In this document: positions 245 through 18,421 of the stretch, in pieces
Numbering within the stretch: the stretch's first letter is position 1
Layout of the letters: every line of letters begins with the position of its first letter
IMG/VR virus record: IMGVR_UViG_3300045988_008823
Location: 1-18,421 of that record
Length of the DNA: 18,421 bases
From: a virus
Direction: 5' to 3' (one strand)
The notes under the pieces: model-generated
Database searches by the model: none
What the model was told of the DNA's origin: nothing
The model's input: only the letters and a program-made list of their open reading frames with translations
Program-made: the position numbers and the translations under genes

Positions 245-274
245 TTGCTAAAAACGTTTTACTTTGTCGATAAT
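245..274 (+). promoter_or_regulatory. Candidate inward sigma-70-type promoter inside the ITR (mirrored on - strand at 18148..18177)
   Basis: TTGCTA (245..250), 18-nt spacer, GATAAT (269..274), pointing toward the first gene. Confidence 0.35.
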
Positions 275-332
275 CTAAGCGCGTAGTTTTCTCATTGTTT
301 TTTGCGTCTCTCGGTGTGTTGTTTTTGGTGTG

Positions 333-341
333 TGGTATGAT
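333..341 (+). promoter_or_regulatory. Extended -10 box TGGTATGAT at the inner edge of the ITR (mirrored on - strand at 18081..18089)
   Basis: TGnTATGAT lies about 20 nt upstream of the SD GGGAGG (359..364) and would drive the first gene at each genome end. Confidence 0.4.
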
Positions 342-373
342 GAAAGTATCAACCACGAGGGAGGTAAATTGAT

Positions 374-2555: not shown

Positions 2556-2617
2556 CACTATTGTCCGCACCGTATGATATCATGGCAATGTCCCTATAGG
2601 GATGTTGCCGCCAGACT

Positions 2618-2653
2618 CACCCCCCGCCGTTTCCATCCTTGCGGCGAGGGGTG
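2618..2653 (+). terminator. Intrinsic terminator or attenuator between the abundant early gene and the TP/polymerase genes
   Basis: CACCCC(C)CGCCG pairs with CGGCG(A)GGGGTG, giving 11 bp with one C/A mismatch and a 12-nt loop, followed by TTTCATACTT. Confidence 0.6.
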
Positions 2654-2675
2654 TTTCATACTTACAGGGGGAGCC

Positions 2676-3620
2676 GTGGCAAAACGCAAAAACCGCCGAC
2701 GCGCTGACAATCTGAAACGCAACGCCGCAATCAGGTCGGCACAGGTACGCCGAGAGCGGGCAGTCAGAGATTACAGTACCGGACGACTCCCCAAGAAAAT
2801 CACCGAAACGTTTTTAGGGAATCTCAGTGCCCAGCAACTTGAGCAGGTCGCACGACGTATCGGGCAGGAATTTGGGGAGCAACAGCGGGCATTAAGGGCG
2901 CGAGATAACGAGCCGTATCAGGTTGTTCCCGACGTCCATGTCACGAAACTTGACCGTGAGATGGCCGCGCGTCCTCTGATAAGCGATGCGGAAATCGCCG
3001 CCGCCCCGTCGAAACGTCGGAAAACATTGCGTCAGCAGCAGCGCCGCCGCATTAAGGCACGGCAGAAAATCAAGCGCGCCCAACAGTTCGAAGCCTTGAG
3101 TATGGCCCGCTATACCGTTGGTGAAATGCGTGAAATGGAACGCGCAGGGGAATCTCCGTTCGATGTGCTGGGCACTCACACGGTCGGTGGCTCGGCCCGC
3201 GACGAACTCATGCGAAGCCGTGCGAACGTGTTCGGCTCAGAGCGTGGTATAAGCCATGCACGTGCGATGATGCGAGAGGGGAGCCGTAGGAAACTTGAAC
3301 GAGAAGTGCTAGAATACGCCGGACTTATTGGACGTGCGCCATTACGCGCGGGAGCTAGGCGTATTCCCGAGAACGAGGGTGTTTCGGACTTCGATAAGGT
3401 CGCGCAACAGCTCGAAGCGTTCGACTCTAGCGTAGTTCAAAGATTCGCTGCCTTGTCGAACCGTCAAAAACGATGGCTGATAAACAACACGAATTTCAGC
3501 ACCGTAGTGCGCGAAGCAGCGTGGTATAATGATAAGACACACAAATGGGAAACTAAATCGGACGTCGGTGATGTAGAGACACGACTTGATGAATGGATGA
3601 CCAGCGCAGCAAGACGCTGA
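2676..3620 (+). CDS. Putative terminal (priming) protein (314 aa from the GTG start)
   Basis: Sits directly upstream of the protein-primed PolB, as phi29 gene 3 does. It is very basic, with NLS-like clusters (AKRKNRRRADNLKR and SKRRKTLRQQQRRRIKARQKIKR) of the kind described for phage terminal proteins. I chose GTG 2676, preceded by GGGGGAG, because the track start at 2574 has no SD and would put the terminator hairpin inside the coding sequence. Confidence 0.55.
   Translation: MAKRKNRRRADNLKRNAAIRSAQVRRERAVRDYSTGRLPKKITETFLGNLSAQQLEQVARRIGQEFGEQQRALRARDNEPYQVVPDVHVTKLDREMAARPLISDAEIAAAPSKRRKTLRQQQRRRIKARQKIKRAQQFEALSMARYTVGEMREMERAGESPFDVLGTHTVGGSARDELMRSRANVFGSERGISHARAMMREGSRRKLEREVLEYAGLIGRAPLRAGARRIPENEGVSDFDKVAQQLEAFDSSVVQRFAALSNRQKRWLINNTNFSTVVREAAWYNDKTHKWETKSDVGDVETRLDEWMTSAARR
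3522..3530 (+). promoter_or_regulatory. Extended -10 box TGGTATAAT about 105 nt upstream of the polymerase start
   Basis: Perfect TGnTATAAT inside the 3' end of the putative TP gene. Confidence 0.3.
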
Positions 3621-3635
3621 AAAAAGGATGGAATC

Positions 3636-5096
3636 ATGCGAGAGCGTCGAACGGCGGCAACAGACGGCGCGGCACTATTGACGGATGACGGCATAACGCC
3701 ATTTACGGCGAACGCCATTATTCGGCTGACCATGCTTGACCACCATACGCGCGTATGGTGCGCCCATGGGTGGCAGGATATCAAGCCTATAGCGGCCGAG
3801 CTGTTGAGGCGCCTCCCCTTGCAATCGAACCCGGCCAAGGATGGAGTTTGGGGCACTTTCAATATTCGTGGCCATTTCTACAGCTTCCGCGTGCGCATGG
3901 GCGGTATCACCGTGGATTTTCTGGACGTGCGCAACATTACACGCGATGACGGATTGAATGTCTCACGTGAAACATTCGGTGGCGCTGATGACTTGGAAAC
4001 CACGTGGAACATCGCGCAGGAATGCGACGCCCTGAATCTCAAGGGCACTACAATCGCGTCTATGGCGATGGGGGATTATATCGGGGGGGACTATGCCGGA
4101 TTCAAACGTCATTTCCCGCCATTGGATAAAGCGGAATATCATCGGATACGCCCCGCATACTATGGGGCGATAGTGTACAGCAGGCCGGGCGAATACCGGG
4201 ATTGCAAGAGTTGGGATGTGAACAGTCTTTATCCGAGTATCATGCGCGACTTTGCTATGCCGGTAGGCTCCCCTATATGGTACGAGGGAGAATATCATTA
4301 TGATGCCGATTACCCGCTGCATATCGATGTTATCACGTTCGATGCGCGCCTGAAGCTAGGGAAAACGGCGACGCTCACAAACATCCTACCAGTATGGGGG
4401 TACGAGGGCGAACGTTTGGATAGTACGCTAGGCGTCGTCACCATGCCCGTCACCAATGTAGACTGGCAGACGCTTGTGGAAAACTATGATGTCCATGTGT
4501 GGGATTATGTTGGCGGCTGGAAATTCCGTAAATCGCATGGACTCTATTACAACTACGTTGATAAATGGTTTCACGTGAAACAAACCGCAACCGGTGAACG
4601 TCGTCAGATGGCGAAATTATTACTGAACTCGTTGGTGGGAAAATTCGGGGCCTCGCTTTATCGGCCTATGCTGCACCCGAAGCCTTCTGGTGATGGCGGC
4701 GTGGATTTTACTGTGGACAAGCCCGAGTTAACAAACTCACTCGCATGGCTACCGACTGCGGCATATGTCAACGCCTACGGTCGGCAAATATTGTCCAGCG
4801 CGATGAACGCGAACGCCGGTCGTGTGCTCTACGCCGACACGGACGGCATGATATTGGACGGGTCAGATGCGCCCGCAGATATCGAAACGGACGATAAGAA
4901 ACTGGGCGCGTGGAAAAACGACCATACCTATGAAAAACTTCGCATTCTCGGTAATCGCAAATACTGCGGTGTGGAAACGGACGGTGGTACGGTGATGCGG
5001 TTGAGTGGCGTGCATCGGGCAGCGCCTATCCCCTACAACGATTTTCTACCGAGGTCACGCCATGTAAATGATGACGGATGTTTTTTTGTGCTATAA
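3636..5096 (+). CDS. Protein-primed family-B DNA polymerase (486 aa)
   Basis: SD AAGGATGG upstream. Motif A is WDVNSLYPS (4215..4238; phi29 DVNSLYPA), motif B is KLLLNSLVGKFG (4614..4649; phi29 KLMLNSLYGKFA) and motif C is LYADTDG (4830..4847; phi29 YCDTDS). It also has a YxGA pre-motif (PAYYGAIVY) and a KxY motif (NRKYCG). Confidence 0.95.
   Translation: MRERRTAATDGAALLTDDGITPFTANAIIRLTMLDHHTRVWCAHGWQDIKPIAAELLRRLPLQSNPAKDGVWGTFNIRGHFYSFRVRMGGITVDFLDVRNITRDDGLNVSRETFGGADDLETTWNIAQECDALNLKGTTIASMAMGDYIGGDYAGFKRHFPPLDKAEYHRIRPAYYGAIVYSRPGEYRDCKSWDVNSLYPSIMRDFAMPVGSPIWYEGEYHYDADYPLHIDVITFDARLKLGKTATLTNILPVWGYEGERLDSTLGVVTMPVTNVDWQTLVENYDVHVWDYVGGWKFRKSHGLYYNYVDKWFHVKQTATGERRQMAKLLLNSLVGKFGASLYRPMLHPKPSGDGGVDFTVDKPELTNSLAWLPTAAYVNAYGRQILSSAMNANAGRVLYADTDGMILDGSDAPADIETDDKKLGAWKNDHTYEKLRILGNRKYCGVETDGGTVMRLSGVHRAAPIPYNDFLPRSRHVNDDGCFFVL
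3960..3973. repeat. Near-perfect (13/14) copy of the palindrome: GTCTCACGTGAAAC
   Basis: Lies inside the polymerase gene (codons VSRET). A half-site-like GAAACCACGTGGAAC lies at 3996..4010. Confidence 0.6.
4568..4581. repeat. Perfect 14-bp palindrome GTTTCACGTGAAAC, copy 1
   Basis: Lies inside the polymerase gene (codons W-F-H-V-K-Q), in a different reading frame relative to the motif from the 3960 and 7611 copies. Confidence 0.9.
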
Positions 5097-5097
5097 T
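5089..5097 (+). promoter_or_regulatory. Extended -10 box TGCTATAAT overlapping the polymerase stop codon
   Basis: Perfect TGnTATAAT. The predicted start near 5104 is at the 5' edge of the structured intergenic region. Confidence 0.45.
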
Positions 5098-5103
5098 GAC
5101 CGG

Positions 5104-5262
5104 TAGCGGGGTGTGCGTCCCAAGCCGATTCAATGGCCCGACCGGCAGGCAATCGGTAAGGCGATTCGGTCGGATGTAGACGTGCGTAGCCAACGCCCAT
5201 TGACGGCGAGGGAACCCGCACAGCCTAGCAATCCGGCACGGCAGCGTGATTGCTGCCGTGCC
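5104..5262 (+). ncRNA. Candidate structured RNA of about 160 nt (pRNA candidate or late-operon leader)
   Basis: A 186-nt gap with no credible ORF. Helices seen by eye are 5109..5117 with 5217..5225, 5138..5144 with 5167..5173, 5151..5155 with 5162..5166 (loop GTAAGG) and 5184..5187 with 5193..5196. A terminal perfect 11-bp hairpin pairs 5235..5245 with 5252..5262. Confidence 0.35.
5235..5262 (+). terminator. GC-rich perfect hairpin without a U-tract (terminator, RNA 3' end or stabiliser)
   Basis: GGCACGGCAGC, loop GTGATT, GCTGCCGTGCC, followed by ATCTACC and the scaffold-gene SD. Confidence 0.5.
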
Positions 5263-5282
5263 ATCTACCTTAAGAGGTGATT

Positions 5283-5624
5283 ATGGACGACACCGAAAAC
5301 GACGACAAGCCGGACACCACGCCCAATACCGAATCGGACGTGACCGCCGACGACAATACGCCGAACCCAGAGCCTGAAACGCAGGACGATAACGAACCTG
5401 AAGACGCAGGCGACGATAAGAACGCCGACATGGCCGACCGGTTGAGCGCATTGGAGGCGACAGTGGCGGAACTGTCCAAAACCGTCGAAGCGATGCGCGA
5501 CGCCGCCGCCGACCACGTGCTGAACGATGGCCCAGATGACAATGCGACGCCGGAATCGGCTGAAATGACCGACGACGACTACAACGGCACCTACAGCACT
5601 TTCGATGACTTGTACGAAGACTGA
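5283..5624 (+). CDS. Putative scaffolding protein (113 aa), acidic with a helical segment
   Basis: ATG 5283 follows AAGAGGTGA; the track start at 5277 is a GTG inside that SD. The protein is highly acidic, with a heptad-like helix ADRLSALEATVAELSKTVEAMRDAAA. It sits immediately upstream of the capsid gene, as phi29 gp7 does. Confidence 0.55.
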   Translation: MDDTENDDKPDTTPNTESDVTADDNTPNPEPETQDDNEPEDAGDDKNADMADRLSALEATVAELSKTVEAMRDAAADHVLNDGPDDNATPESAEMTDDDYNGTYSTFDDLYED

Positions 5625-5646: not shown

Positions 5647-7377
5647 ATGGCAACTACTCCAGTGGTGACGCCGAAGCAGCAGCTTCGCCCGCTCACCGAA
5701 TTTAACAACGCTCAGATTCTTAACATGATTCGCAACGAGGCGTCGCCAGAGTACCAGAGGCGAATGCCCTCGGCCACTCAGATGAATATGGATAGGCAGA
5801 TGGCTACGCTTATGTCGTCTACCCAGCTTAAGAACGAGTTTTATTCGGCGTTAGTGAACCGTATCGGCGGCACTTACGTGAACACGTGGCGTTGGAACAA
5901 TCCGCTGAGCGTTTTTCAGCGCGCATCGCAGGCGTATGGTGACACGTGGCAGGAAATCGCCGTAGGTATGCCGCTTGCGCAGGTCTACGACCCTAATGCG
6001 GAATATCTCGGCGCGGATAACTTCCGCAAGTGGAAAATCGACGTGGATTCGCTCTATCATCGTTTGGACTTCGCCCACTGGTATCCCGCGACTACGGACG
6101 ACAAGACGCTTCAGCGCGCTTTCACGTCCGAAAACGGTCTAGCCTCGCTCACTTCCCAGATTCTCACCTCTTGTTATAACGCGGCTGAAGTGGACTTGTT
6201 CGAGGCCTTGTGTCATCAATTCGTTGAGTATGCGAAACTTGGCGGATATTGGCGTGTCCATATGGACAACGACCTGAACAACATGGGCAGTTCGGAGACG
6301 GACGCCCGCGACATGTTGCGCCAGATTCGCGCATGGGCTGACACGCTTAAATTCGTTTCCACCAAGTACAATGCCCGTCACATGCCGACCTTCGCCCGCC
6401 CGGACGAACTTGTATTGTTCTGTTCCCCCGAAGTCAAGTCGGCGCTTGACGTGCAGGGCCTTGCCACGGTATTTCAGCGTACGGACGCCGAGCCGACCAT
6501 CGACCGGATTATCGTCATTCCGCAGGACAGATTCGGCATGAATGGCGTGCAAGCCATCTTGACCACTGACAAGTTTCTGATTGACATTCCGGTCATTAAC
6601 GAGATGACTCAGCAGACCAATCCGGTCAACATCAATTCAGTTAACCATTATCTGCATGTCCAGCACATCATCTCAGTGTCCGGCTTCGCGCCCGCCGTGA
6701 TGTTCTGGACTGGCGCGGCGTCTACTTCCAACGTGGTGGCCCCTACCGGCACGCAGGCTCAGGCACCGACGTTCCAGCTCAAGCTTGCCATGTATGGCGG
6801 TGGCTCGGAAACTCCGAGCGACGTGGCGCGTGGCGGCGCGGTGCAGGTCACTGCTGATACGACGATTACTAATGACGGCACTGCCACGTTCCGTTCGGAT
6901 GCGGTTGAATATCGCATTGGCGACACCGCTAAGTCGAAGAGCGATTATACGTATATCTCGCCTACCGGCGTGCTTGTGGTCGGCCTTGACGAACCGAACA
7001 CCATCATCCCGATTACCGCAACCGCCTTGTACACGAACCCGGCGATGCCGGAAGTGCCGGGCACCGTGTCGGCGGCTCTGGACGTGCCAGTGGTCGGTGA
7101 CGGTGTTATCGGATTCAACCCGTCCATCATCGCGTCTATTGCCGTGACAGTCCCGAACGTGACTGTAGGACATCCGGCGCAGGCTACTGCCGTGGCGACA
7201 ATGATTGACGGACGTACCGCCGATGTGACCGCGCAGGCCGCGTGGACGTCCAGCACTCCGGCGAATGCCACCGCATCCGAATCGGGCGTGGTGACTGGCA
7301 TCAAGGAGGGCGCCTCTGACATCACCGCCACGCTGTTCGGCGTGTCTGGAAAAAAGAGCGTGACAGTGACCGCGTGA
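5647..7377 (+). CDS. Major capsid protein, phi29 gp8-like, with C-terminal Big_2 Ig-like domain (576 aa)
   Basis: Hand alignment to phi29 gp8: NMIRNEASPEYQRRMP with NAIRNSQGDNFKSYVP, NEFYSALVNRIG with NDFITSLVDRIG, YNAAEVDLFE with YNSAEVDEYE, and NHYLHVQHIISVSGFAPAVMF with NYYLHVWQVLSASRFANAVAF. The C-terminus (about 7129..7374) has the Big_2 signature ...AWTSSTPANATASESGVVTGIKEGASDITATLFGVSGKKSVTVTA. Confidence 0.93.
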   Translation: MATTPVVTPKQQLRPLTEFNNAQILNMIRNEASPEYQRRMPSATQMNMDRQMATLMSSTQLKNEFYSALVNRIGGTYVNTWRWNNPLSVFQRASQAYGDTWQEIAVGMPLAQVYDPNAEYLGADNFRKWKIDVDSLYHRLDFAHWYPATTDDKTLQRAFTSENGLASLTSQILTSCYNAAEVDLFEALCHQFVEYAKLGGYWRVHMDNDLNNMGSSETDARDMLRQIRAWADTLKFVSTKYNARHMPTFARPDELVLFCSPEVKSALDVQGLATVFQRTDAEPTIDRIIVIPQDRFGMNGVQAILTTDKFLIDIPVINEMTQQTNPVNINSVNHYLHVQHIISVSGFAPAVMFWTGAASTSNVVAPTGTQAQAPTFQLKLAMYGGGSETPSDVARGGAVQVTADTTITNDGTATFRSDAVEYRIGDTAKSKSDYTYISPTGVLVVGLDEPNTIIPITATALYTNPAMPEVPGTVSAALDVPVVGDGVIGFNPSIIASIAVTVPNVTVGHPAQATAVATMIDGRTADVTAQAAWTSSTPANATASESGVVTGIKEGASDITATLFGVSGKKSVTVTA

Positions 7378-7383
7378 TATAAT
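7375..7383 (+). promoter_or_regulatory. Extended -10 box TGATATAAT overlapping the capsid gene stop
   Basis: Perfect TGnTATAAT. The 12-mer GTGATATAATGG is repeated exactly at 9812..9823. Confidence 0.3.
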
Positions 7384-7430
7384 GGGAGGGTAGCCGGTTG
7401 GCTACTCTCTCTCACGGTGTGATGCAGGAC

Positions 7431-7467
7431 AAGGCCCGGAACAATCCACGTGATTGCTCCGGGCCTT
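7431..7467 (+). terminator. Intrinsic terminator or attenuator after the capsid gene
   Basis: AAGGCCCGGA (7431..7440) pairs with TCCGGGCCTT (7458..7467). An inner CAATC/GATTG extension closes a CACGT loop. The hairpin is followed by TGTCAT. Confidence 0.6.
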
Positions 7468-7487
7468 TGTCATACCGGAGGATAACA

Positions 7488-9815
7488 ATGATTGACGACG
7501 CGAACCCTTATGTGGAATCTAATTTTTCGTGGGCGGAGTGGACACCCAACACCACACTGAAACTCTGCCGCGTACCGTGGGATGCTTCATACCGCGATAT
7601 TGTGCGCTTTGTTTCACGTGAAACACAGCAAGAATGGTTTGACAAACTGGACGGCGTGGAATGCCGTCCGGCCACCATGCATATTTTCAACGCGCCAGTC
7701 CGCGTCGAACTGCCGTTTAACGAGGCGTCGAACTGGAATTATCTAGTGGCCTACAATGACTACCCCGGTCTGGAGGGGCCACGCGCATGGTATTACTTTA
7801 TCCAGCGCGTTGAATACGTCAACGCCCATTGCACGCAACTAGTCTTGATGCTGGACGTATGGCAAAGTTTCCAGCATGACGTCACATTCGGCAGCTGCTA
7901 TGTGATGCGCGGCCATATCGGCGTCGCCAACGAACACCAATGGGATGATTACGGGCGCACATATCTCGCTTTGCCTGAAGGGCTGGATACCGGAAGCGAG
8001 ATGGTCACGACGTCACAGGAATACCAGAGCATCATTGAGGGCCAACATTATGATATAGACGGTGGCAGTGTTGATTGGGTTGATTACGGCCTGATTGTGG
8101 TCAGCACCACGAATCTCTCTGACGACCCCGGCAACACTTCTGCCCCAAAATTGACTACCGCAACCGGGGCAATCTTCGAGCAGGAGACGGACGGCTGTTC
8201 CGTCTACTATTGCGAGAACAGGATGGCGTACGTCGCCAACATAATGGCTCTTGGCACGCTGTTCCCTTGGGTAACGCAAGGCATTTGCGCCGTGTACATG
8301 GTGCCAAAAATCCCACGGGATTACATAGACCGATACGGTGTTAAAGTCACGAAAATCTATGGGCAGCCGGTGTCTGAGGAATATGGCAGCATTTATGCTT
8401 TCAATTCGTCTCTCGATTCGGACTTACGCTATGAAGACGTTATGGCTATTCCGAACTTTCGTCGTAAATTCAACATCCCCGCCCGCTATCGGAACCTACG
8501 CAAACTCTATTGCTACCCGTTTTGCGTTATTGAATGCAGCTGTTTGAACGGCACGGTTATCACCTATCGACCTGAAGACATCCAATCCGACATGCTCACT
8601 ATCCGCGAAACCTACACTTACGCGCCGTCCGGCGCAAGGATTAACTTCTATGTCCCCGGATACAATGAGGCAGGAGCTGGCACTACCGTGCCGCTGCGCA
8701 TCAACGGCAAGGATATGGGACTCCCGATAGACGGCGGCGAAATGCTCAATGCAAGTTTTGGCATCACCAATCTACCCCACTTTTCCGTGGTCAACAATGG
8801 CGGCGCGTTGGCGATGGCAAACAGCGCGTACACCCGCGCCTACGCGCAGGAATCGGCCCAATGGACTAGGCAGAAGGCTTTGACCTCGGCAAACGTGGCC
8901 AACTCCAATGCTGCATTGCAGCGTGAATACGCCACACGGCAAACCAATTGGGCAAATGAGAACAGGACGGCAACCAATGCCATCACGGCAAACTCGCTGA
9001 ACCAGTCTCTTGCCATCGGGCAGAATCAAACCAGTCAGATGGCTAATCTCCAAGTAGAGCAGAACATCAAGAGCAATAATCTCAATGGTATGGCCGGTAT
9101 TATTGGCGGTGGACTGAACGCCATCGCGTCACATAGTCCGTTAGGTGCGGTGAACGCGGTTGGCGGCGCGTTCCTCGGCTCCGCGCGAACGGATATCGCC
9201 AATTACGGCATTAATTCGTCGGCTGCTGTCTCCAATTCCACGGCGGCGGCGAGTACGGCCAATCAGCTTGCCACCAATGCAGCGGCCGCATCGCAGGCCA
9301 ACGCCTACGCGAGCGGCGCGACCGGACTGAGCAACCAGCTCAACGCCCTTACCTCGCAAGCGAATTACGGACTGGCCTCGTACGCGGCGCAAGGCGACTA
9401 CCAGAACGCCATCGCCGGAATCAACGCCCAAGTGCAGCAGATGCAACTGACTCCGCCAACCACTTCAGGAGCGCTCGGCGGTGACATGTTCAATTTGTCG
9501 AACGGCATTATGGGCGTGTTGGTGCGGTTCAAAACGTGTGCACCGAGCGCGTTGAGGGCGGCAGGTGAATACATGCTACGCTATGGATATTTTGTCCAAC
9601 GATTCGTAACGCCACCCACTTCGCTGGAATGCATGGACAAATTCACGTTCTGGCAGATGCAGGAAGCGTATGTGCGGGGCACGTTGCCGGAAGAATACCG
9701 ACTGACCATCAAGGGCATGTTTGAACGTGGCGTGACGGTCTGGAACAAGCCTGAATACATCGGCGTGACCGACTGGGCGGACAATGAGCCACTGCCGGGT
9801 ATTGGCTATGAGTGA
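7488..9815 (+). CDS. Tail knob (distal tail tube) protein, phi29 gp9-like (775 aa)
   Basis: ATG 7488 lies 7 nt after GGAGG; the track's TTG start at 7398 would read through the terminator hairpin. Hand alignment to phi29 gp9: VPWDASYRDIVRFVSRETQQEWFDKL with [26 protein letters not shown], and WYYFIQRVEYVNAHCTQLVLMLDVWQSFQHD with [32 protein letters not shown]. Confidence 0.85.
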   Translation: MIDDANPYVESNFSWAEWTPNTTLKLCRVPWDASYRDIVRFVSRETQQEWFDKLDGVECRPATMHIFNAPVRVELPFNEASNWNYLVAYNDYPGLEGPRAWYYFIQRVEYVNAHCTQLVLMLDVWQSFQHDVTFGSCYVMRGHIGVANEHQWDDYGRTYLALPEGLDTGSEMVTTSQEYQSIIEGQHYDIDGGSVDWVDYGLIVVSTTNLSDDPGNTSAPKLTTATGAIFEQETDGCSVYYCENRMAYVANIMALGTLFPWVTQGICAVYMVPKIPRDYIDRYGVKVTKIYGQPVSEEYGSIYAFNSSLDSDLRYEDVMAIPNFRRKFNIPARYRNLRKLYCYPFCVIECSCLNGTVITYRPEDIQSDMLTIRETYTYAPSGARINFYVPGYNEAGAGTTVPLRINGKDMGLPIDGGEMLNASFGITNLPHFSVVNNGGALAMANSAYTRAYAQESAQWTRQKALTSANVANSNAALQREYATRQTNWANENRTATNAITANSLNQSLAIGQNQTSQMANLQVEQNIKSNNLNGMAGIIGGGLNAIASHSPLGAVNAVGGAFLGSARTDIANYGINSSAAVSNSTAAASTANQLATNAAAASQANAYASGATGLSNQLNALTSQANYGLASYAAQGDYQNAIAGINAQVQQMQLTPPTTSGALGGDMFNLSNGIMGVLVRFKTCAPSALRAAGEYMLRYGYFVQRFVTPPTSLECMDKFTFWQMQEAYVRGTLPEEYRLTIKGMFERGVTVWNKPEYIGVTDWADNEPLPGIGYE
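7611..7624. repeat. Perfect 14-bp palindrome GTTTCACGTGAAAC, copy 2
   Basis: Lies inside the tail-knob gene (codons F-V-S-R-E-T), 123 nt after its start. Confidence 0.9.
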
Positions 9816-9821
9816 TATAAT
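9813..9821 (+). promoter_or_regulatory. Extended -10 box TGATATAAT overlapping the tail-knob stop, 6 nt upstream of the portal ATG
   Basis: Perfect TGnTATAAT, then GGCGAT, then ATG 9828. This spacing fits a leaderless start, and there is no SD upstream of 9828. Confidence 0.4.
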
Positions 9822-9827
9822 GGCGAT

Positions 9828-10778
9828 ATGAGTAGGTCTAAAAAGAATCGAGTTGGCGGCGCGTCGCACCCGCGCGGCAATTACGCAAAAGCACGCGCAG
9901 CCACGCTTGATGACATGTATCTTCACTTGCTAATGGAACTCGCACTGAACCGTTTCAGTTGGCGCGGATTACCACCCACCGTAGACGAACGTTGGCTGGA
10001 AATATGTCTGTGCGAATACGGGTGTGCGCTGTTTTTCGAGGACAAGCGTATCGGCAGGTTCCTTGCAACGCAGGCTGGTTATCAAGGCAGGTTGAATGTG
10101 TACAACAATCCGACATGCTTCGAACCGGTAGGCGTCAACTACCATTATAGGCAGCTCAAGGCCGGTTCGGAATGCATTCCAATTTGGGACAATAGAATGC
10201 GCGTCGGATTCAAGCCGACATTATGGCAGTACGCGCGACGCCTTGCCGATATCGACAAGGCGTATGACGTGAACTTGGAGAGCCTGAAACTGCCAACCAT
10301 AATCACAGCCGACCCCCGCACCAAACTCACCGTGCAGAACATGCTTCAACAGCGGCAGGACGGTCAGGATTATATCATCGGATACGATTCGCTTGACCCC
10401 GGCAGCATGTTCCAGCCGTGGCCGAACACTACGCCTTATTTGCTGGACAAGTTCATCCAGCAAAAAGCACAGGTGACTAACGAAGTGCTGGGGTATCTCG
10501 GCATTCAGTCGTCCGGCACGGAAAAAAAGGAACGGCTGATATCCGACGAAGTGGCGCAGGCCAACGAGAAAGTAGACGTGTTCCGGTTGAGCTTCCTTAA
10601 GGCGCGGCAGACGGCGGCGACCGAGATTAACCGATTGTGGCCGCAGCTTAATGTCTGGGTGGAATATGCGGACGCGCAAAGCTCCGGCGTGCCCAACGCG
10701 CTTGACTCTAGCGCTTCGGGCACGACGGACATTGACATGCCGGCATCATATGACGCGGGTATCGGAGGTGTATTGTGA
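9828..10778 (+). CDS. Portal (upper collar / connector) protein, phi29 gp10-like (316 aa)
   Basis: Hand alignment to phi29 gp10: LELALNRFSWRGLPPTVDERWLEICLCEYGCALFFED with [37 protein letters not shown], and GIQSSGTEKKERLISDEVAQANEKVD with [26 protein letters not shown]. The basic N-terminus MSRSKKNR resembles MARKRSN. Confidence 0.92.
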   Translation: MSRSKKNRVGGASHPRGNYAKARAATLDDMYLHLLMELALNRFSWRGLPPTVDERWLEICLCEYGCALFFEDKRIGRFLATQAGYQGRLNVYNNPTCFEPVGVNYHYRQLKAGSECIPIWDNRMRVGFKPTLWQYARRLADIDKAYDVNLESLKLPTIITADPRTKLTVQNMLQQRQDGQDYIIGYDSLDPGSMFQPWPNTTPYLLDKFIQQKAQVTNEVLGYLGIQSSGTEKKERLISDEVAQANEKVDVFRLSFLKARQTAATEINRLWPQLNVWVEYADAQSSGVPNALDSSASGTTDIDMPASYDAGIGGVL

Positions 10779-12648: not shown

Positions 12649-14091
12649 ATGTCTACCACACAGCATACCGGACACTACAATCTGCCGACATTTGGCGACA
12701 ATCCAAACGACCGCCCGTCATGGCGCGGCGATTTTACGAACGCGATGACGAAAATTGACAATCAGATGTACACCAACGCCACCAACATCACCACGGCGAC
12801 GGCAGCGGCGAACAACGCAACCACGGCGGCGGGCGAGGCTAAGACGGCGGCTGACAACGCCACAAGCCTCGCGCAGGCCAATAAGAACGATATTGCCGAC
12901 TTGGACGGCTATTTCGGTAAGCTCGGCGTCACGTCGGAATCAACCGCGCAGCAGCTTATGAATACCATCAACGGCAAGGCGGAAAATACCGAACTGACCT
13001 CGCTTAAGAGCACGGTATCTTCATTGTCCAGCACGGTTAATACCAAGGCGAACACCTCCGACGTGTACACCAAGGGTCAGGCCGATACGACGTTTACCAA
13101 GCAGGGCGGATATTCCGGCACCGCGCAGCAGTTGAACCAGCGTATTCAAGCGCTGGAAGCGACGCCGGAAGACCAGCTGCCTATCTGCCTCTGTATCGGA
13201 GACAGCTACGCCAATTCGTCCAGCACCGCCGACCCGGACGGCACGGACGCAACCAAATGGCCCACGCAGTTGAGAAACATCATCGGCAACGATTATCGAG
13301 TAAAAAACTACTCGGTCACTGGAGCTGGATTCAATGTGTCAGGCAATACGTTCACCGACCAAATTAACAACGCTTACAGTTCGTCGGCCATCGATAATGA
13401 CAATGTGGCGATTATCATTATCGGAGGCGGTCGAAACGATATCGGCACCACACCGCAGATGAAATCGTATGCAGACGCGACATTCTCCAATGCGCGCGCC
13501 AAATTCCCCAAGGCTCGTATCATCTCCGTACCTATGCTCTGGCACAACGTCGGCATGGATATGTACGGCCGACAGAAAGCTGCGGGTATCGCGGAAGCGG
13601 CTGCAAAAAACGGCGTGGAAAACGTTGACTGGGCTTGGACGTGGAATATTGGCAACGACTCCAATTTCCCCAGCGGCGACATTCACCCCAACGCCAACGG
13701 GTCGAAGGTTATCGCGTCCTATATGGCCTCCGCCGTTCGAGGCACTTATACCGGACGCTATGAAGCAGCTACTCTAGCGGCCCCAAGTGGTAACGTATAC
13801 TCCAATATCGTGGCATCTGGTGGCATGATTTTCGCTACACTTTGGGGAGAAGACCCATCTACCAACGCGGAACTGAAGGCCGGTATTACGTTCCCGAAGT
13901 GGGCTAGGTCTGCGAATGGTTCCTCTCCCAACATCCTCAGGGCGTGGGGCGCGGGCCTTACCAACTCCGGTTCCGCCATAAGCGGCTGGCTGTTAACTGA
14001 CACGAACTTGTCAGACGGCGCACCCAGAATTAGCTACTTCGGTAATACCGCTGGTGGTAACAATGGCTGTTTCGTGTGCTACCCGTGGTAA
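12649..14091 (+). CDS. Tail fibre/spike with SGNH (GDSL) esterase domain (480 aa)
   Basis: ATG 12649 follows AAAAAGGAAA; the track start at 12574 overlaps the previous gene. It has the shared N-terminal docking module and an Asn/Thr/Ala-rich coiled stalk. The SGNH blocks are CIGDSYANSS (about 13198), VTGAGF, IIGGGRND (about 13423) and GDIHPN (about 13678). Confidence 0.75.
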   Translation: MSTTQHTGHYNLPTFGDNPNDRPSWRGDFTNAMTKIDNQMYTNATNITTATAAANNATTAAGEAKTAADNATSLAQANKNDIADLDGYFGKLGVTSESTAQQLMNTINGKAENTELTSLKSTVSSLSSTVNTKANTSDVYTKGQADTTFTKQGGYSGTAQQLNQRIQALEATPEDQLPICLCIGDSYANSSSTADPDGTDATKWPTQLRNIIGNDYRVKNYSVTGAGFNVSGNTFTDQINNAYSSSAIDNDNVAIIIIGGGRNDIGTTPQMKSYADATFSNARAKFPKARIISVPMLWHNVGMDMYGRQKAAGIAEAAAKNGVENVDWAWTWNIGNDSNFPSGDIHPNANGSKVIASYMASAVRGTYTGRYEAATLAAPSGNVYSNIVASGGMIFATLWGEDPSTNAELKAGITFPKWARSANGSSPNILRAWGAGLTNSGSAISGWLLTDTNLSDGAPRISYFGNTAGGNNGCFVCYPW

Positions 14092-14153: not shown

Positions 14154-15419
14154 ATGAACAATACTGCTTACTACGCCATGTACGTTATTGGCACCGTCGA
14201 AAGTAATTGCAATTGGGGCGCGTGCAATTACGTTGACGCCATCACCATTGGCATGATGCAATGGTATGGGACGCGCGCGCGCAATCTATTGGAGCGCGGG
14301 CGCACCGCCGACCCGGACGGCTGGGGTACGTTTGCCACGGCAGTACCGACTCTAGCCCAGCAGGTGCAGGCGAATAATATCAACTGGTCAACACGATACC
14401 TATCAACGGCAGAGGGCAACGCATGGAAGACGTGGGCGCAACGCGACGAAAACCATGCGTTTCAGGAGGCGCAATGGGAGGCGGATTGGAATAGTTACCA
14501 GTCCACTATGGACGGGTATGGTTTCCCGTCAGGGAACGTAAGAGAGCGTATCATGTGGGCTTGCGCCTACCACCAAAGCCCGGCGCAGGCGCAGCGCGTA
14601 CTTGCATCATGCTCCGCTACGGCCACGCTGGAATTGATTTACACCACCATCTTAGCGGATGGCGTATTAGGCCAGTACCGCAATCGGTACACCACCGCGT
14701 ACAACCTACTGAAAGCATGGGACGGCACGAGCGCGCCGCCCGACTTCGGCCAGACCTCCGAACCGTCGGATACGCCGGGCGGAGACCGACCCGGCATCGA
14801 CGGAAAGCCCAGCAGCACCGCGTGGATACAATTGCAGGGTGACAACCTGATTTACCATAGCGGCGACAGTATGGCCATTTTTGTGAAAAGCTCCGCACAG
14901 ACATGGATGTACAAGACTACCGAATCTACCCAGCCGGGAGGTGGACAGACAGGCGGCGGCTCAAGCTCAGGCAGTAGCAGCGAGGACGCGGCACGCGTCG
15001 TGGAATGGTTGCGGTCACGTATCGGCAAATACGCTTATTCGCAGGGCGCGGGACGATTAGACCCCGATTCAAGCGGGTACGGCGATTGCTCCAGTGTATG
15101 CTGGCGCGCATATCAGGACGTGCTGGGCATCGACGTGGGCACATGGACAGGCCAGATGGCAAGCAAGGGCACCCGCGTCTGCGGCAGCTCCGACACATCG
15201 GTGTCGGATGCTATCGCCAAGGCTCACGCCGCCGACCTATTGCTGCTGGACTGGGGTGCCTATACGCAGGCGTGGGACCATGTGGAAATGTTTACGGCGG
15301 ACGGCAAGGATGAGACATTATCACACGGTGGACCGGGAAACGGGCCGAATCTGTTCGCCGCGTCGGGTGAAATGAATCTGGCGAGTCGGTGGGAGATACG
15401 CCGGTACATCACCAACTAA
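14154..15419 (+). CDS. Tail-associated two-domain peptidoglycan hydrolase, functional analogue of phi29 gp13 (421 aa)
   Basis: The N-terminus IGTVESNC...ITIGMMQWYG resembles the phage tail lysozyme pattern of phi29 gp13 (GNMQSES...GLVQWT). A Gly/Ser linker GGGQTGGGSSSGSSS follows. The C-terminus looks like NlpC/P60, with catalytic-type GYGDCSSVCWRAY and WDHVEMF. Confidence 0.75.
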   Translation: MNNTAYYAMYVIGTVESNCNWGACNYVDAITIGMMQWYGTRARNLLERGRTADPDGWGTFATAVPTLAQQVQANNINWSTRYLSTAEGNAWKTWAQRDENHAFQEAQWEADWNSYQSTMDGYGFPSGNVRERIMWACAYHQSPAQAQRVLASCSATATLELIYTTILADGVLGQYRNRYTTAYNLLKAWDGTSAPPDFGQTSEPSDTPGGDRPGIDGKPSSTAWIQLQGDNLIYHSGDSMAIFVKSSAQTWMYKTTESTQPGGGQTGGGSSSGSSSEDAARVVEWLRSRIGKYAYSQGAGRLDPDSSGYGDCSSVCWRAYQDVLGIDVGTWTGQMASKGTRVCGSSDTSVSDAIAKAHAADLLLLDWGAYTQAWDHVEMFTADGKDETLSHGGPGNGPNLFAASGEMNLASRWEIRRYITN

Positions 15420-15421
15420 TA

Positions 15422-15459
15422 CAACGATAGATTGGTAAATATCTACCGGTTTATCGTTG
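15422..15459 (+). terminator. Long RNA hairpin between the hydrolase and ATPase genes (16 bp including 3 G-U pairs)
   Basis: CAACGATA-GATTGGTA, loop AATATC, TACCGGTT-TATCGTTG. There is no U-tract. It covers the track's TTG start at 15457. Confidence 0.45.
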
Positions 15460-15468
15460 CCATATGAT

Positions 15469-16578
15469 ATGATGAATATTATGGAAAGGCTGTTAGGCGA
15501 GGGTGATTATTACGATTATGGGCGCGTGCTGTCCTATCACGCGCCTTGGATGTTTGTAATCGGCGCGCGCGGCCTCGGTAAAACGTATGGTGCTAAAAAA
15601 TTGGTCATCGGCGACTGGATTAAAAAACGCTGGCAATTCATCTACCTCCGCCGAACCGCCGAGGAACAGAAGAATAAAGGCACGTGGTTCGCGGACATCG
15701 CAGAACAATATCCAGAATTAGAGTTTAGAGTGTCGGGGAATCAGGCCGAATGTCATTGGCTGGATGATAGGGACGCCACCGCCGACAAACACGGCAAGAA
15801 ACGCCCGACATGGCACGTCATGGGCTATTTTATCGCCCTATCACAAGCCGGACAAGTGAAATCAGTCGCATACCCCAAAGTGCGGACAATTATCTTCGAC
15901 GAAATATTCCCCGATAATATGCGCTATCTCGGCGGAGAGGTCACGGCGCTTGAGGAATTTTACAACACGGTAGACCGCTGGAACGATAGAGTTCGCGTTA
16001 TCATGTGCAGCAACGCCGTAACGTTGGCTAACCCGTATTTCAGCGCGTTCAACATCAACCTAAAACCGCAGCTGGATAATTGCACGCAATATCAGCGATA
16101 TTGTGACGGGTTTATTATGGTGGAATTAGCTGATTACGGCGGGTTTAGTGCCAAGGTTGCCGCATCCAAATTCGGACAGTTTTTACGCAGATATGACGAA
16201 AATTATGCAAATTATGCAATCAACAACGATTTTAGAGACAACGCCAATTCTCTCATTAGTGATTTTAACAACGCCGGTTATGCATTCACATTAAAAACCA
16301 CCGAATACGGTATTTTCAACGTCTATCAGCAACTAAGTGACACTGACGAAGTGCTATATATAATCACAAAAAAACAGCCGAAAATCACCCGCAATTTTAC
16401 ACTTGATTATCGACTTGTAGACAATGATTGCATAATGCTCAAACGCTCCGACGACATGACGCAAAAAATATTGAACGCCTACCGCGTCGGTAGATTACGG
16501 TTCGAAACCCCGCAAATTAAAGCGGAGTTCAGTATGATTCTTGGCGGCTTGTTGCAACAATCAGGCATAAAGAAGTGA
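15469..16578 (+). CDS. DNA packaging ATPase, phi29 gp16-like (369 aa from ATG 15469; start uncertain among 15457, 15469, 15472 and 15481)
   Basis: Hand alignment to phi29 gp16: VLSYHAPWMFVIGARGLGKTYGAKK with MLSYDRILNFVIGARGIGKSYAMK (Walker A, 15562..15585), QFIYLRR with QFIYVRR, AYPKVRTIIFDEI with AYPNVSTIVFDEF (Walker B), MCSNAVTLANPYFSAFNI with CLSNAVSVVNPYFLFFNL, and GRLRFE with GYLRFD. Confidence 0.93.
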   Translation: MMNIMERLLGEGDYYDYGRVLSYHAPWMFVIGARGLGKTYGAKKLVIGDWIKKRWQFIYLRRTAEEQKNKGTWFADIAEQYPELEFRVSGNQAECHWLDDRDATADKHGKKRPTWHVMGYFIALSQAGQVKSVAYPKVRTIIFDEIFPDNMRYLGGEVTALEEFYNTVDRWNDRVRVIMCSNAVTLANPYFSAFNINLKPQLDNCTQYQRYCDGFIMVELADYGGFSAKVAASKFGQFLRRYDENYANYAINNDFRDNANSLISDFNNAGYAFTLKTTEYGIFNVYQQLSDTDEVLYIITKKQPKITRNFTLDYRLVDNDCIMLKRSDDMTQKILNAYRVGRLRFETPQIKAEFSMILGGLLQQSGIKK

Positions 16579-16587
16579 GGCATATAT

Positions 16588-16941
16588 ATGTCAATCCATG
16601 AATTAATCGTTATCGGCATCGTATTTCTATTAGTGCTTATTGATTACGCGACAGGCGTAGTCAACGCAATTATGCACAACGAATTATCTAGTGAGAAAAT
16701 GCGGCAAGGACTTGGACATAAATTCGCATACCTTGCCATAATTTGCGTGGCGCTTATCGTTGAATACGGTTCGGATTACATCAATCTAGGCGTTGACCTT
16801 CCTGCATTCATTCCAGTATGCGGGGGTATTTGCTTGATTGAAATCACCTCAATCATGGAAAATTGCGTGAAAATCAACCCAGAATTATCAAACTCAAACA
16901 TTCTTGACATTTTCAGCACCTCAGAACACAAGAAAGAATAG
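16588..16941 (+). CDS. Holin (117 aa), family-4 / TcdE-like type
   Basis: SD GTGAGG upstream. Three hydrophobic segments, plus the patterns LIDYATGVVNA, SSEKMRQGLGHKF and LIEITSIMENCVKINP that are typical of this holin family. It sits directly upstream of the endolysin. Confidence 0.85.
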   Translation: MSIHELIVIGIVFLLVLIDYATGVVNAIMHNELSSEKMRQGLGHKFAYLAIICVALIVEYGSDYINLGVDLPAFIPVCGGICLIEITSIMENCVKINPELSNSNILDIFSTSEHKKE

Positions 16942-16949
16942 AAAAACCT

Positions 16950-17750
16950 ATGGACAACATTATATGGGTTGGCTCACCAAACCACTACAGCGGACGGGCT
17001 GGATATAAGGTGACACACATCACCTTGCACATCATGGCCGGTTTCTTAACCGGCACCGACAATGTATTTTCGCGGTCATCCAGTCAGGCCAGTGCGCACT
17101 ACGGTATCGGAGCCAACGGCGAAATACATCAATATGTAGACGAAGCTAACGGCCCGTGGTCGGACGCTAATTACAATTCAAACATGTCAACTATCAGCAT
17201 CGAGCATGAGGGTGGTATCCCACAAGCTCGATGCACGCAAGCATGTGTCGACGCAAGCGCACGACTCTGCGCCGACATATCACAACGTTACGGACTAGGT
17301 ATGCTATGGCACGACGGCACACGCGGCAACGTGTGGTTACACCGAGAAATCAGCGGCACCGACCACACCACGTGTCCAGACCTAGCACCAAACGGACTAC
17401 CATACCAACAAGTAATCGACAAAGCCAACAAGATAATAGGAGGCACAACAATGGCCAACGCAGGGGATGAAGTTTGGAACTGGGCATACCGCCCAGACGG
17501 GAAAAATGCCACACCGGGCGGCAACATGTACAATCTACTCACCTACGAACTGCCGACACGAATTCGTGACAGCATCATGCAATACAACTTCAAAAACACC
17601 GCGCCCGGAGGGAACGTTTACAACACTCTATGCTTTGAAATACCCGGAATGATAAAACAGCTCGCCAAAACAATCGAAGCACAGCAAAAGCAACTTGACG
17701 CGCTGACAAAAGAAATTACAACACTAAAAAAACAAATAAACTCAATATGA
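16950..17750 (+). CDS. Endolysin, N-acetylmuramoyl-L-alanine amidase (Amidase_2/PGRP type) with an unusual C-terminal region (266 aa)
   Basis: THITLHIMAG, SAHYGIG, ISIEHEG and HREISGTDHTTCPD match the zinc amidase_2 pattern. The C-terminal 100 aa has two PGGN(M/V)YN-L-(Y/F)E(L/I)P repeats and a terminal coiled coil. Confidence 0.85.
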   Translation: MDNIIWVGSPNHYSGRAGYKVTHITLHIMAGFLTGTDNVFSRSSSQASAHYGIGANGEIHQYVDEANGPWSDANYNSNMSTISIEHEGGIPQARCTQACVDASARLCADISQRYGLGMLWHDGTRGNVWLHREISGTDHTTCPDLAPNGLPYQQVIDKANKIIGGTTMANAGDEVWNWAYRPDGKNATPGGNMYNLLTYELPTRIRDSIMQYNFKNTAPGGNVYNTLCFEIPGMIKQLAKTIEAQQKQLDALTKEITTLKKQINSI

Positions 17751-17751
17751 C

Positions 17752-17788
17752 ATAAGTAAAGCCCCGCATGTCGCGGGGCTTTACTTAT
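17752..17788. terminator. Bidirectional intrinsic terminator between convergent genes
   Basis: ATAAGTAAAGCCCCGC, loop ATGTC, GCGGGGCTTTACTTAT (16 bp, perfect). The A/T-rich flanks give a U-tract in both directions. Confidence 0.85.
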
Positions 17789-17791
17789 ATG

Positions 17792-18046
17792 TCAATCGCC
17801 GTTGTCAATCGCAACAACATACCTACGGCACCTACGGCCATCAATACGACATTTACTAACATATTGAATCTCGTAATCATCACTCAATGTAAGTTCAACG
17901 CATGTAGATAGTGCCGACTCGAACGAAACAACACTATTCTCAATTTCGCCGTTATTGCTAACGGTGGTAGAAATTACGTTTTCAATATGAACTTCATATG
18001 AGTTATCTTCTTCAACTTCAATAACAATAGCCCTGAACGTAATCAT
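17792..18046 (-). CDS. Hypothetical right-end early protein (84 aa), acidic
   Basis: I use the ATG at 18046, 11 nt after the ITR-borne GGGAGG (18063..18058). The track's TTG start at 18127 lies inside the ITR, and the same frame in the left ITR stops at 370..372, so that extension is not supported. Confidence 0.55.
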   Translation of the reverse strand: MITFRAIVIEVEEDNSYEVHIENVISTTVSNNGEIENSVVSFESALSTCVELTLSDDYEIQYVSKCRIDGRRCRRYVVAIDNGD

Positions 18047-18052
18047 TTTTTT

Positions 18053-18386
18053 ATTTACCTCCCTCGTGGTTGATACTTTCATCATACCACACACCAAAAA
18101 CAACACACCGAGAGACGCAAAAAACAATGAGAAAACTACGCGCTTAGATTATCGACAAAGTAAAACGTTTTTAGCAAAAACACAAAATACGCACTTAAAA
18201 TATAACACAAAACGACACGCCGGATTGACAATGAAACCAAAGTAGGTAAAATAGAAGACAACAAAGGAGATATACAACGGCAGGGCAGGAACGATAATAA
18301 AAAACACAGGGCAGAGAACAAGAACGAAATACACAACAGAGCAGCCGTGGAAAAAGACTAGCTCCAGGGACCCCTCCCCTCCTTTT
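18053..18386. repeat. Right inverted terminal repeat (334 bp)
   Basis: Exact reverse complement of 36..369. Confidence 0.97.
18225..18252 (+). promoter_or_regulatory. Outward-facing consensus promoter in the right ITR
   Basis: TTGACA (18225..18230), 16-nt spacer ATGAAACCAAAGTAGG, TAAAAT (18247..18252). The predicted start near 18259 runs off the end at 18386. Confidence 0.4.
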
Positions 18387-18421
18387 AGATCGGAAGAGCA
18401 CACGTCTGAACTCCAGTCACT
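18387..18421. other. Illumina TruSeq-type sequencing adapter (technical, not biological)
   Basis: AGATCGGAAGAGCACACGTCTGAACTCCAGTCACT, the standard adapter read-through sequence, directly abutting the genome end ...CCTCCTTTT. Confidence 0.97.

Follow-up and report, generated by a model that had tools for sequence, protein, structure and literature searches.

The locus and its transcript

The IMG/VR virus record IMGVR_UViG_3300045988_008823, analysed over its whole stretch of 18,421 nucleotides (nt; the window), is an essentially complete small podophage genome of 18.4 kb whose genes lie nearly all on the + strand. Between the end of the open reading frame (ORF) for a protein-primed type B polymerase (3636-5096, +; Pfam/PHROGs) and the next ATG at 5283, which opens a small acidic scaffold-like ORF (5283-5624, +), lies a non-coding gap of 186 nt (5097..5282). 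This gap is treated here as a candidate gene for a packaging RNA (pRNA) resembling the RNA found in phi29's DNA-packaging motor. The sequence-only reading that singled it out had called it the one sizeable non-coding gap of the genome. It is the sole gap of more than 100 nt inside the gene array, but a 100-nt gap is present at 274..373 and the right end is poorly coding.

A perfect extended -10 promoter box, TGCTATAAT, occupies 5089..5097 on the + strand and overlaps the TAA stop codon of the polymerase gene, as had been noticed before. Transcription is predicted to start ~7 nt past the box, at ~5104-5105, giving an RNA of ~160 nt up to the end of a 3' hairpin, in agreement with the earlier estimate of a start near 5104; invariant sequence begins at 5105. 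Conservation was followed in close relatives from IMG/VR (at least 79, with capsid proteins 90-97% identical), which provided 78 distinct copies of the locus and are referred to here as the window clade. The box is kept in nearly all 78 copies, a few of which read TGTTATAAT, TGCTATGAT or TGATATAAT, and the motif is also kept in the Bifidobacterium phages BD811, BP1 and BadAztec. Perfect TGNTATAAT boxes number six in the window against 0.61 expected, an enrichment of ~10-fold; they are found on the + strand at 784-792, 3522-3530, 5089, 7375-7383 and 9813-9821, and on the - strand at 10369-10377. Those at 3522, 5089, 7375 and 9813 lie across the stop codon of a gene or at most ~100 nt upstream of the next one, and, as the 5089 box does with the polymerase stop codon, those at 7375 and 9813 overlap the stops of the capsid gene and the tail-knob gene respectively. 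From these positions at stop codons and gene starts it follows that the 5089 box is part of a real promoter series, which suggests that internal promoters are arrayed along the one-directional genome.

At its 3' side the RNA runs closely into the next gene. The ribosome-binding site (RBS) AAGAGG of the scaffold-like ORF (5272-5277, +) stands 10 nt past the 3' hairpin (5235-5262), a spacing that leaves no room for a second promoter, and none is present between the hairpin and the RBS. The sequence that follows the hairpin, AUCUACCUUAAG, has no U-tract, a consensus terminator scan found no + strand terminator at the locus, and a terminator that would delimit a discrete transcript is absent from the window clade. 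The next TGNTATAAT box after 5089 is that at 7375, behind the capsid gene. The RNA, with neither a U-tract nor a second promoter behind it, thus forms the 5' leader of the scaffold-capsid mRNA in a physical sense. The sequence-only reading had itself offered a leader, or an early-late terminator, as an alternative; the leader stands in this physical sense, whereas the terminator is at odds with a hairpin that has no U-tract.

Fold of the RNA

The + strand from 5100 to 5270 folds at -86.4 kcal/mol (z = -5.14), and none of 200 dinucleotide shuffles is as good. Domain I alone (5105..5234) reaches -58.3 kcal/mol (z = -3.43; 0/200 shuffles), with a minimum free energy (MFE) structure identical to the centroid. 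The MFE, centroid and RNAalifold structures agree on a multi-branch core like a three-way junction, which had been proposed by eye, and the helices proposed with it recur: a closing helix pairing 5109..5117 with 5217..5225 around one G-G mismatch, a bulged hairpin (5138..5144 with 5167..5173 and 5151..5155 with 5162..5166, loop GUAAGG) and a small hairpin at 5184..5196. Two features had been overlooked. The closing helix goes on (5118..5136 with 5197..5213), and the bulge of the first hairpin carries a GGC (5148..5150) complementary to a GCC (5189..5191) in the loop of the second.

As delimited by the fold and by the 78-copy alignment, domain I consists of an A helix, a three-way junction, a C/E arm and a D hairpin, all on the + strand of a G+C-rich RNA. 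The 5' strand of the A helix (5106..5136) pairs with the 3' strand (5197..5229) over ~24 base pairs (bp) in three segments, and the helix contains internal bulges, including a 3-nt ACC at 5214-5216. The C/E arm (5138..5173) is formed by a C helix of 7 bp (5138-5144/5167-5173), a 5'-side bulge of 6-7 nt (5145-5150/5151) that holds the GGC, and an E helix of 4 bp (5152-5155/5162-5165) closed by the GUAAGG loop at 5156-5161. A single-stranded junction linker of 10 nt, AUGUAGACGU (5174..5183), almost invariant in the alignment, joins the C helix to the D hairpin, GCGU(AGCCA)ACGC (5184..5196). A short linker then leads to the 3' hairpin (5235..5262), the equivalent of domain II or of a terminator. 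This terminal hairpin, GGCACGGCAGC-GUGAUU-GCUGCCGUGCC, is present as described earlier, with 11 Watson-Crick pairs, or 12 bp when one G-U pair is counted.

Conservation as a + strand RNA

The gap region is present in all window-clade relatives examined. In its core (5105-5234) the majority base has a mean frequency of 0.959 and 39% of the columns vary, whereas third codon positions in the flanking genes (polymerase, scaffold and capsid) give 0.76-0.80 and 93-95%; purifying selection on the core is as strong as that on codon positions 1-2 of the neighbouring genes. The variation does not follow a 3-nt period, and roughly half of the copies differ by a 1-nt indel (column 54 is a gap in 37/78). 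A coding ORF at 5113..5280 was considered and rejected because of these indels and the missing periodicity, and because it is open in 17/78 copies only.

On the proposed structure, standard pairs are found in 99.2% of cells of the alignment, whereas sliding the partners by 1-3 columns as a control leaves 28-44% of cells paired. Compensatory changes occur at eight pairs in the window clade; in the 3' hairpin five of the 12 pairs show them. In the A helix the pair 5132/5201 shows a compensatory AU/GC change, and one-sided changes exchange GC and GU, as at 5125/5206 (UG in 47 copies, CG in 31). The closing pair of the D hairpin covaries as well (UA 49, CG 15, UG 14). An all-against-all scan of column pairs was too noisy for use. 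Which strand is the functional one? Because the one-sided changes are mostly GC to GU or AU to GU exchanges, which on the opposite strand would be A-C mismatches, the functional RNA is that of the + strand; a minus-strand RNA was rejected on these grounds and for its weaker fold (z = -3.45). A z-score scan of the window found no other structured non-coding region longer than 100 nt, only short intergenic hairpins elsewhere. That the locus encodes a structured RNA with a function is close to certain.

The bulge-loop contact and the sister clade

In phi29, the right-hand (C/E) bulge of one pRNA pairs with the left-hand (D) loop of the adjacent pRNA and so closes the ring (PMC5066667, PMC12670572), and two G-C pairs are enough for function according to Guo's laboratory (PMC12670572). 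In the window clade the bulge GGC is kept in 77/78 sequences while the flanking bulge bases vary (GUAGGC, UAAGGCA, ACAGGC, UGAGGCA and others). The D-loop GCC is invariant and its neighbours vary (UAGCCAA, CAGCCAG, CGGCCAG and others), and in three relatives a loop UUUGCC lies opposite a bulge GGCA(AA), lengthening the match. An IMG/VR scan with the pattern GTGCGTCCC-N(88-105)-CCCGCAC was too unspecific; it gave no new bulge or loop variants, GGC and GCC remaining invariant. Such invariance is consistent with a contact, short of proof.

A covarying contact is seen in a sister clade. By capsid protein, the nearest cultured relatives of the window are the Bifidobacterium phages BadAztec1/2 (42%) and BP1 and BD811P1-3 (36-37%), followed by phi29-like phages of Rhizobium, Curtobacterium and Arthrobacter; they are relatives at the protein level only: when the polymerase-capsid region was searched against cultured phages as nucleotide sequence, nothing matched. 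A gap lies at the same place in these Bifidobacterium phages, of 227-230 nt in BD811P2 and BP1 and of 178 nt in BadAztec1, and in all three TGCTATAAT or TGCTATAGT lies at its beginning, across the stop codon of the polymerase gene. The RNAs of the BD811 clade were unannotated before and were found in the present analysis. From 80 IMG/VR relatives of BD811P2, 73 distinct copies were obtained. Their fold follows the same design except for a small additional hairpin in the A helix; pairing holds in 96.5% of cells, 28/47 pairs show compensatory changes and the D helix covaries at 7/7 pairs. Here the 5' bulge holds (G/A)CCAC, the complement of the 5-nt D loop GUGG(C/U), and the pairing of the two is 98.4% intact over the 73 copies. 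Its variable position reads GC in 59 copies, AU in seven, GU in seven and AC in none; the seven copies with AU are spread over several distinct sub-lineages.

The transcript of the BD811 clade is also better delimited. Its 3' hairpin has the same GUGAUU loop as that of the window and is followed by UUUUAUUUU, which makes it a U-tract terminator, and a second promoter, CATGATATAAT, is conserved ~35 nt before the scaffold RBS (~80 genomes). With its own promoter, its own terminator and a second promoter behind it, the BD811-clade RNA is therefore a free-standing gene.

At the level of sequence the two clades do not meet. A covariance model of the BD811 clade (R1), run with filters off, failed to align domain I of the window and matched only the top of the hairpin, GCGUGAUUGC. 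A model of the window clade (R2) found only hairpin-plus-RBS modules in other phages and nothing in phi29. R1 also gives a weak match at 624-712 of the window (12.8 bits, E = 0.39), a terminator-like hairpin with the same CGUGAUUG top, then a T-run, inside small early ORFs; this motif shows no enrichment across the genome.

Further clades

In BadAztec1 (12690-12856, - strand) and BadAargau2 (~1926-2120) a syntenic RNA forms an E-like hairpin, CGUA(UUAAGU)UACG, and an A helix that two compensatory changes support. The inner fold is ambiguous from two sequences, which contain repeated GGUG and CACC segments. The BadAztec RNA is fused directly to the scaffold RBS, with no second promoter.

A brief look was also taken at two further clades, where the bulge-loop matches are short. 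Rhizobium phage RHph_N3_8, of a Gram-negative host, and four metagenomic relatives carry a conserved structured RNA of the same three-way-junction design between the polymerase module and the scaffold gene (2953-3110 of the examined DNA in RHph_N3_8). Besides the A helix, this RNA has a C helix of 10 bp, a 5' bulge of 7 nt, a D hairpin and, at its 3' side, a hairpin of 16 bp. The E hairpin of this clade has 3 bp and a loop UUGAUC, UUGAAC or GUGAAAA, and 18/54 pairs show compensatory changes among the five sequences. An equivalent RNA is found in Arthrobacter, in the phages Anjali, Swim, Tillums and Mendel (in Anjali at 2830-3000 of the examined DNA, behind a ribbon-helix-helix gene), with compensatory changes at 14/54 pairs in four sequences. 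Its C helix carries a 6-nt 5' bulge, ACAGCU, complementary to the D loop GUAGCU (AGCU/AGCU), and its E helix is CCCC/GGGG with a loop UUGAAU, close to that of phi29. All E loops hold U-R-A: UUGAGU in phi29, GU(A/G)AGG in the window clade, UUAAGU in BadAztec and UUGAAU in Anjali. In Tillums, part of the RNA is annotated as a hypothetical protein. Anjali has a second non-coding gap of 327 nt (5136-5462; z = -4.9) between the capsid and tail genes, with a long perfect hairpin.

A candidate packaging RNA

What may such an RNA do? pRNA is the only RNA known to be essential in a viral DNA-packaging motor, and for almost 40 years it has been documented from Bacillus phages only (PMC5066667, PMC11476376, PMC12670572). 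The claim of the sequence-only reading that no pRNA had been defined outside the Bacillus phi29 group agrees with the literature searched, in which pRNAs belong to Bacillus phages only (PMC11476376, PMC12670572), save for one predicted pRNA of an archaeal ampullavirus that is cited in PMC7672431. We consider it probable, at about 0.62, that the gap of the window encodes a pRNA-like packaging RNA. The pRNA reading withstood the computational tests run except that of sequence-family membership, the packaging role being proposed by analogy. It is favoured by the phi29-type capsid, connector and gp16 genes of the phage, by the conservation of the non-coding RNA, by its place just behind the polymerase gene in the orientation seen in phi29, by an order and dimensions of helices that match the Rfam pRNA consensus, and by the complementarity of bulge and loop, which covaries in the sister clade. 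The N-termini of the gp10-type connectors are basic in all phages compared (MSRSKKNR in the window, MARKRSN in phi29).

Transcription would most likely begin ~7 nt past the conserved extended -10 box and yield the ~160-nt + strand RNA. By analogy with phi29, the C/E-bulge GGC of one molecule would pair with the D-loop GCC of the next, and five or six RNAs might in this way form a ring seated on the connector's basic N-terminal tails. The A helices would then point outward and dock the gp16-type ATPase, which would package the protein-primed genome. In the window clade, the RNA would presumably be released from the scaffold-capsid transcript at the 3' hairpin, either because termination there is partial or through processing by a nuclease.

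Several observations weigh against a packaging role. The Rfam pRNA model RF00044 (Phage_pRNA), which the sequence-only reading had proposed as a check, recovers phi29 pRNA as a positive control with 145.4 bits and is negative here at every threshold: the locus gives no match at the gathering score (100 bits) or at E <= 10, and the whole genomes of the window, BD811P2 and BadAztec1 give none at E <= 1. Rfam, searched at gathering and permissive thresholds, gives nothing relevant in these three genomes. The window RNA is not a member of the RF00044 sequence family. Since the models of the two clades miss each other's domain I, the link between clades is one of synteny and architecture only; unalignable domains would fit the Bacillus pRNAs, whose overall sequence similarity is only 12% (PMC5066667). 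Three-way junctions with interacting loops are not unique to pRNA. The GGC/GCC contact of the window clade is of 3 bp only, invariant and without covariation of its own; by our estimate a 3-nt match would arise by chance roughly once in six, and the counts would be fitted equally well by a pseudoknot within one molecule and by contacts between molecules. Given a hairpin with no U-tract and no second promoter behind it, the window clade need not produce a discrete RNA species. Finally, the C-terminal lysines with which phi29 gp16 contacts pRNA (K236 and K239; PMC7672431) are not conserved. Two aromatic positions are partly conserved in the gp16 alignment, and the comparison of contact residues is taken as neutral evidence.

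Alternatively, the RNA may act in cis as the 5' leader of the late scaffold-capsid operon, by processive antitermination of the put/EAR type or as a protein- or ligand-sensing attenuator, timing or boosting the late genes through a change to RNA polymerase or through control over read-through of the hairpin behind it. Its fusion to the scaffold RBS with no second promoter, in the window clade and in BadAztec, is what such a leader would look like, as are its place exactly at the boundary between replication and structural genes and the strong hairpin that follows, a genuine terminator in the BD811 clade. We nevertheless regard a regulatory leader as unlikely. In the ~80 BD811-clade genomes the second promoter frees the late genes from read-through and sets the RNA apart as a separate unit, and in the window the genes further downstream have TGNTATAAT boxes of their own. 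The ~24-bp A helix is very stable and has no alternative pairing with the hairpin, unlike a switch, and a leader function leaves unexplained both the pRNA-like order and size of the elements and the covarying bulge-loop contact.

Slightly less likely is a trans-acting phage small RNA unrelated to packaging, engaged in sequestering a host protein or (6S-like) RNA polymerase, in anti-defence or in the regulation of host or phage mRNAs. The discrete transcription unit of the BD811 clade would suit it, as would the strong conservation and structure of the RNA and the lack of a match to any Rfam family. Against it, position and architecture are kept despite complete sequence turnover, among phages whose capsid proteins are ~36-42% identical and into phages of Rhizobium and Arthrobacter; such retention is typical of a core structural component and unlike the patchy occurrence usual for accessory RNAs. 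A conserved, extended single-stranded seed is also missing, and the design matches pRNA specifically.

That the gap is a promoter-plus-terminator region only, its fold a by-product of G+C-rich sequence and DNA-level signals, is very improbable and effectively refuted by the conservation, pairing and BD811-clade data: a promoter box and a terminator-like hairpin do exist, and hairpin-plus-RBS modules recur between other genes of these phages, but the 130 nt from promoter to hairpin are conserved like codon positions 1-2, 99% of the pairs are kept through GC-GU and compensatory changes, the fold is better than that of all shuffles, and four clades keep the fold while the sequence differs.

It is as likely as not that these RNAs are genuine packaging RNAs and that RNA-dependent packaging, no peculiarity of Bacillus phages, is ancestral to the whole phi29-like lineage, including the phages of Actinobacteria (Bifidobacterium-type, Arthrobacter) and Rhizobium; the sequence would then have drifted while the junction, the bulge-loop contact and the U-R-A loop were kept, the RNA of the window clade being the leader of the scaffold-capsid mRNA. 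A motor RNA made as such a leader would couple its own supply to the synthesis of the prohead proteins. Should experiments confirm the function, this would be the first such RNA family outside Bacillus phages; comparative support for the candidate comes from more than 150 genomes. It bears on the use of RNA by phi29-like phages of other hosts and on how gp16 ATPases that lack the nuclease dock to the prohead (PMC7672431). As a search rule one can combine a promoter that follows the replication module with a three-way junction, a complement between bulge and loop and a 3' hairpin; this rule also yielded the Rhizobium and Arthrobacter candidates. Phages BD811P1-3, BP1, Anjali and RHph_N3_8 are all cultured, which makes the candidate testable. 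A G+C-rich pRNA family would supply independent data on the essential features of the motor, and new three-way-junction scaffolds for RNA nanotechnology.

Genome context

Further genes of the window were identified by Pfam and PHROGs. They encode a Phi29-type major capsid protein with a C-terminal immunoglobulin-like domain (5647-7377; Pfam Phi29_MCP, E = 6e-86), a gp9-like tail knob (7398-9815), the gp10-type connector (9828-10778; Pfam Phage_connector (GP10), E = 8e-43), the gp16-type packaging ATPase (15457-16578; Pfam Podovirus_Gp16, E = 7e-43) and an amidase endolysin. The polymerase is short, with 486 amino acids against 572 for that of phi29 (gene at 1145-2863), and the match to Pfam DNA_pol_B_2 is confined to its residues 133-341. 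The ORF upstream of it (2574-3620, 348 amino acids) has no match in Pfam or PHROGs and is presumably the terminal protein. Both genome ends (1-1500 and 16000-18421) have a G+C content of ~0.42 against ~0.55 in the centre, and the left end shows a marked positive GC skew and a negative AT skew.

Other hairpins were noted in the course of the scans. A short one, GGTAGCC-GGTT-GGCTACT (7385-7410), lies directly after the capsid gene and its TGATATAAT box, and similar hairpin-plus-RBS modules are found before gp16 (~15430), in BD811P2 (14990-15057) and in RHph_N3_8. The best z-score of the window (-8.9) belongs to a strong symmetric hairpin with A/T-rich flanks (AAGTAAAGCCCCGCATGTCGCGGGGCTTTACTT) at 17755-17790, after the endolysin gene, which probably serves as a terminator for both directions, separating the late genes from the right end, where ORFs are mostly on the minus strand. 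As a repeated motif, GUGAUUGC is not enriched genome-wide.

Comparison with known systems

Like the window RNA, purine riboswitch aptamers place two hairpins on a closing helix; the loop contacts of the aptamers covary and lie within one molecule. The antitermination elements HK022 put and EAR are likewise 5' leaders directly behind a promoter. Unlike the window RNA, all these elements are much smaller, with a short switchable closing helix or two simple stem-loops, they are not tied to a phi29-type set of motor genes, and none has an Rfam match in the window.

The RNAs of BD811P1-3 and BP1 resemble that of the window in position, in the promoter over the polymerase stop, in forming a three-way junction, in having a bulge complementary to a loop, and in the GUGAUU loop of the 3' hairpin. 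They differ in an unalignable domain I, the extra A-helix hairpin, a 5-bp contact, a true terminator and the second promoter.

The phi29 pRNA is a discrete transcript running from promoter A1 to terminator TA1, and its gene stands at the genome end. The window RNA gene, in contrast, lies between the polymerase and scaffold genes and, without a terminator of its own, shares its transcript with the scaffold and capsid genes; Bifidobacterium is the host of the window's nearest cultured relatives, Bacillus that of the phi29 group. The two RNAs also differ in the junction linker (10 nt in the window, UUU in phi29), in the strand of the 3-nt A-helix bulge (3' in the window, 5' in phi29) and in the D helix (4 bp in the window, 6 bp in phi29). 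The other elements are of similar size: the A helix has ~24 bp in the window and ~22 bp with its 3-nt bulge in phi29, the C helix 7 and 9 bp, and the 5'-side bulge 6-7 and 9 nt, while the E helix (4 bp), E loop (6 nt) and D loop (5 nt) are equal in both. In either genome the RNA lies downstream of the polymerase gene, in the same orientation and behind its own promoter. On one strand of phi29 the terminal protein gene comes first, then the polymerase gene, four small ORFs, promoter A1 and the pRNA; in the window the polymerase is followed by promoter and RNA. Both genomes encode a gp8-type capsid protein, a gp10-type connector, a gp16-type ATPase and a protein-primed polymerase. In both RNAs the bulge is complementary to the D loop, a contact whose covariation is seen in the BD811 sister clade, and the elements follow one another in the same order: A helix, C helix, 5' bulge, E helix, 3' strand of the C helix, junction, D hairpin, 3' strand of the A helix, linker and 3' domain.

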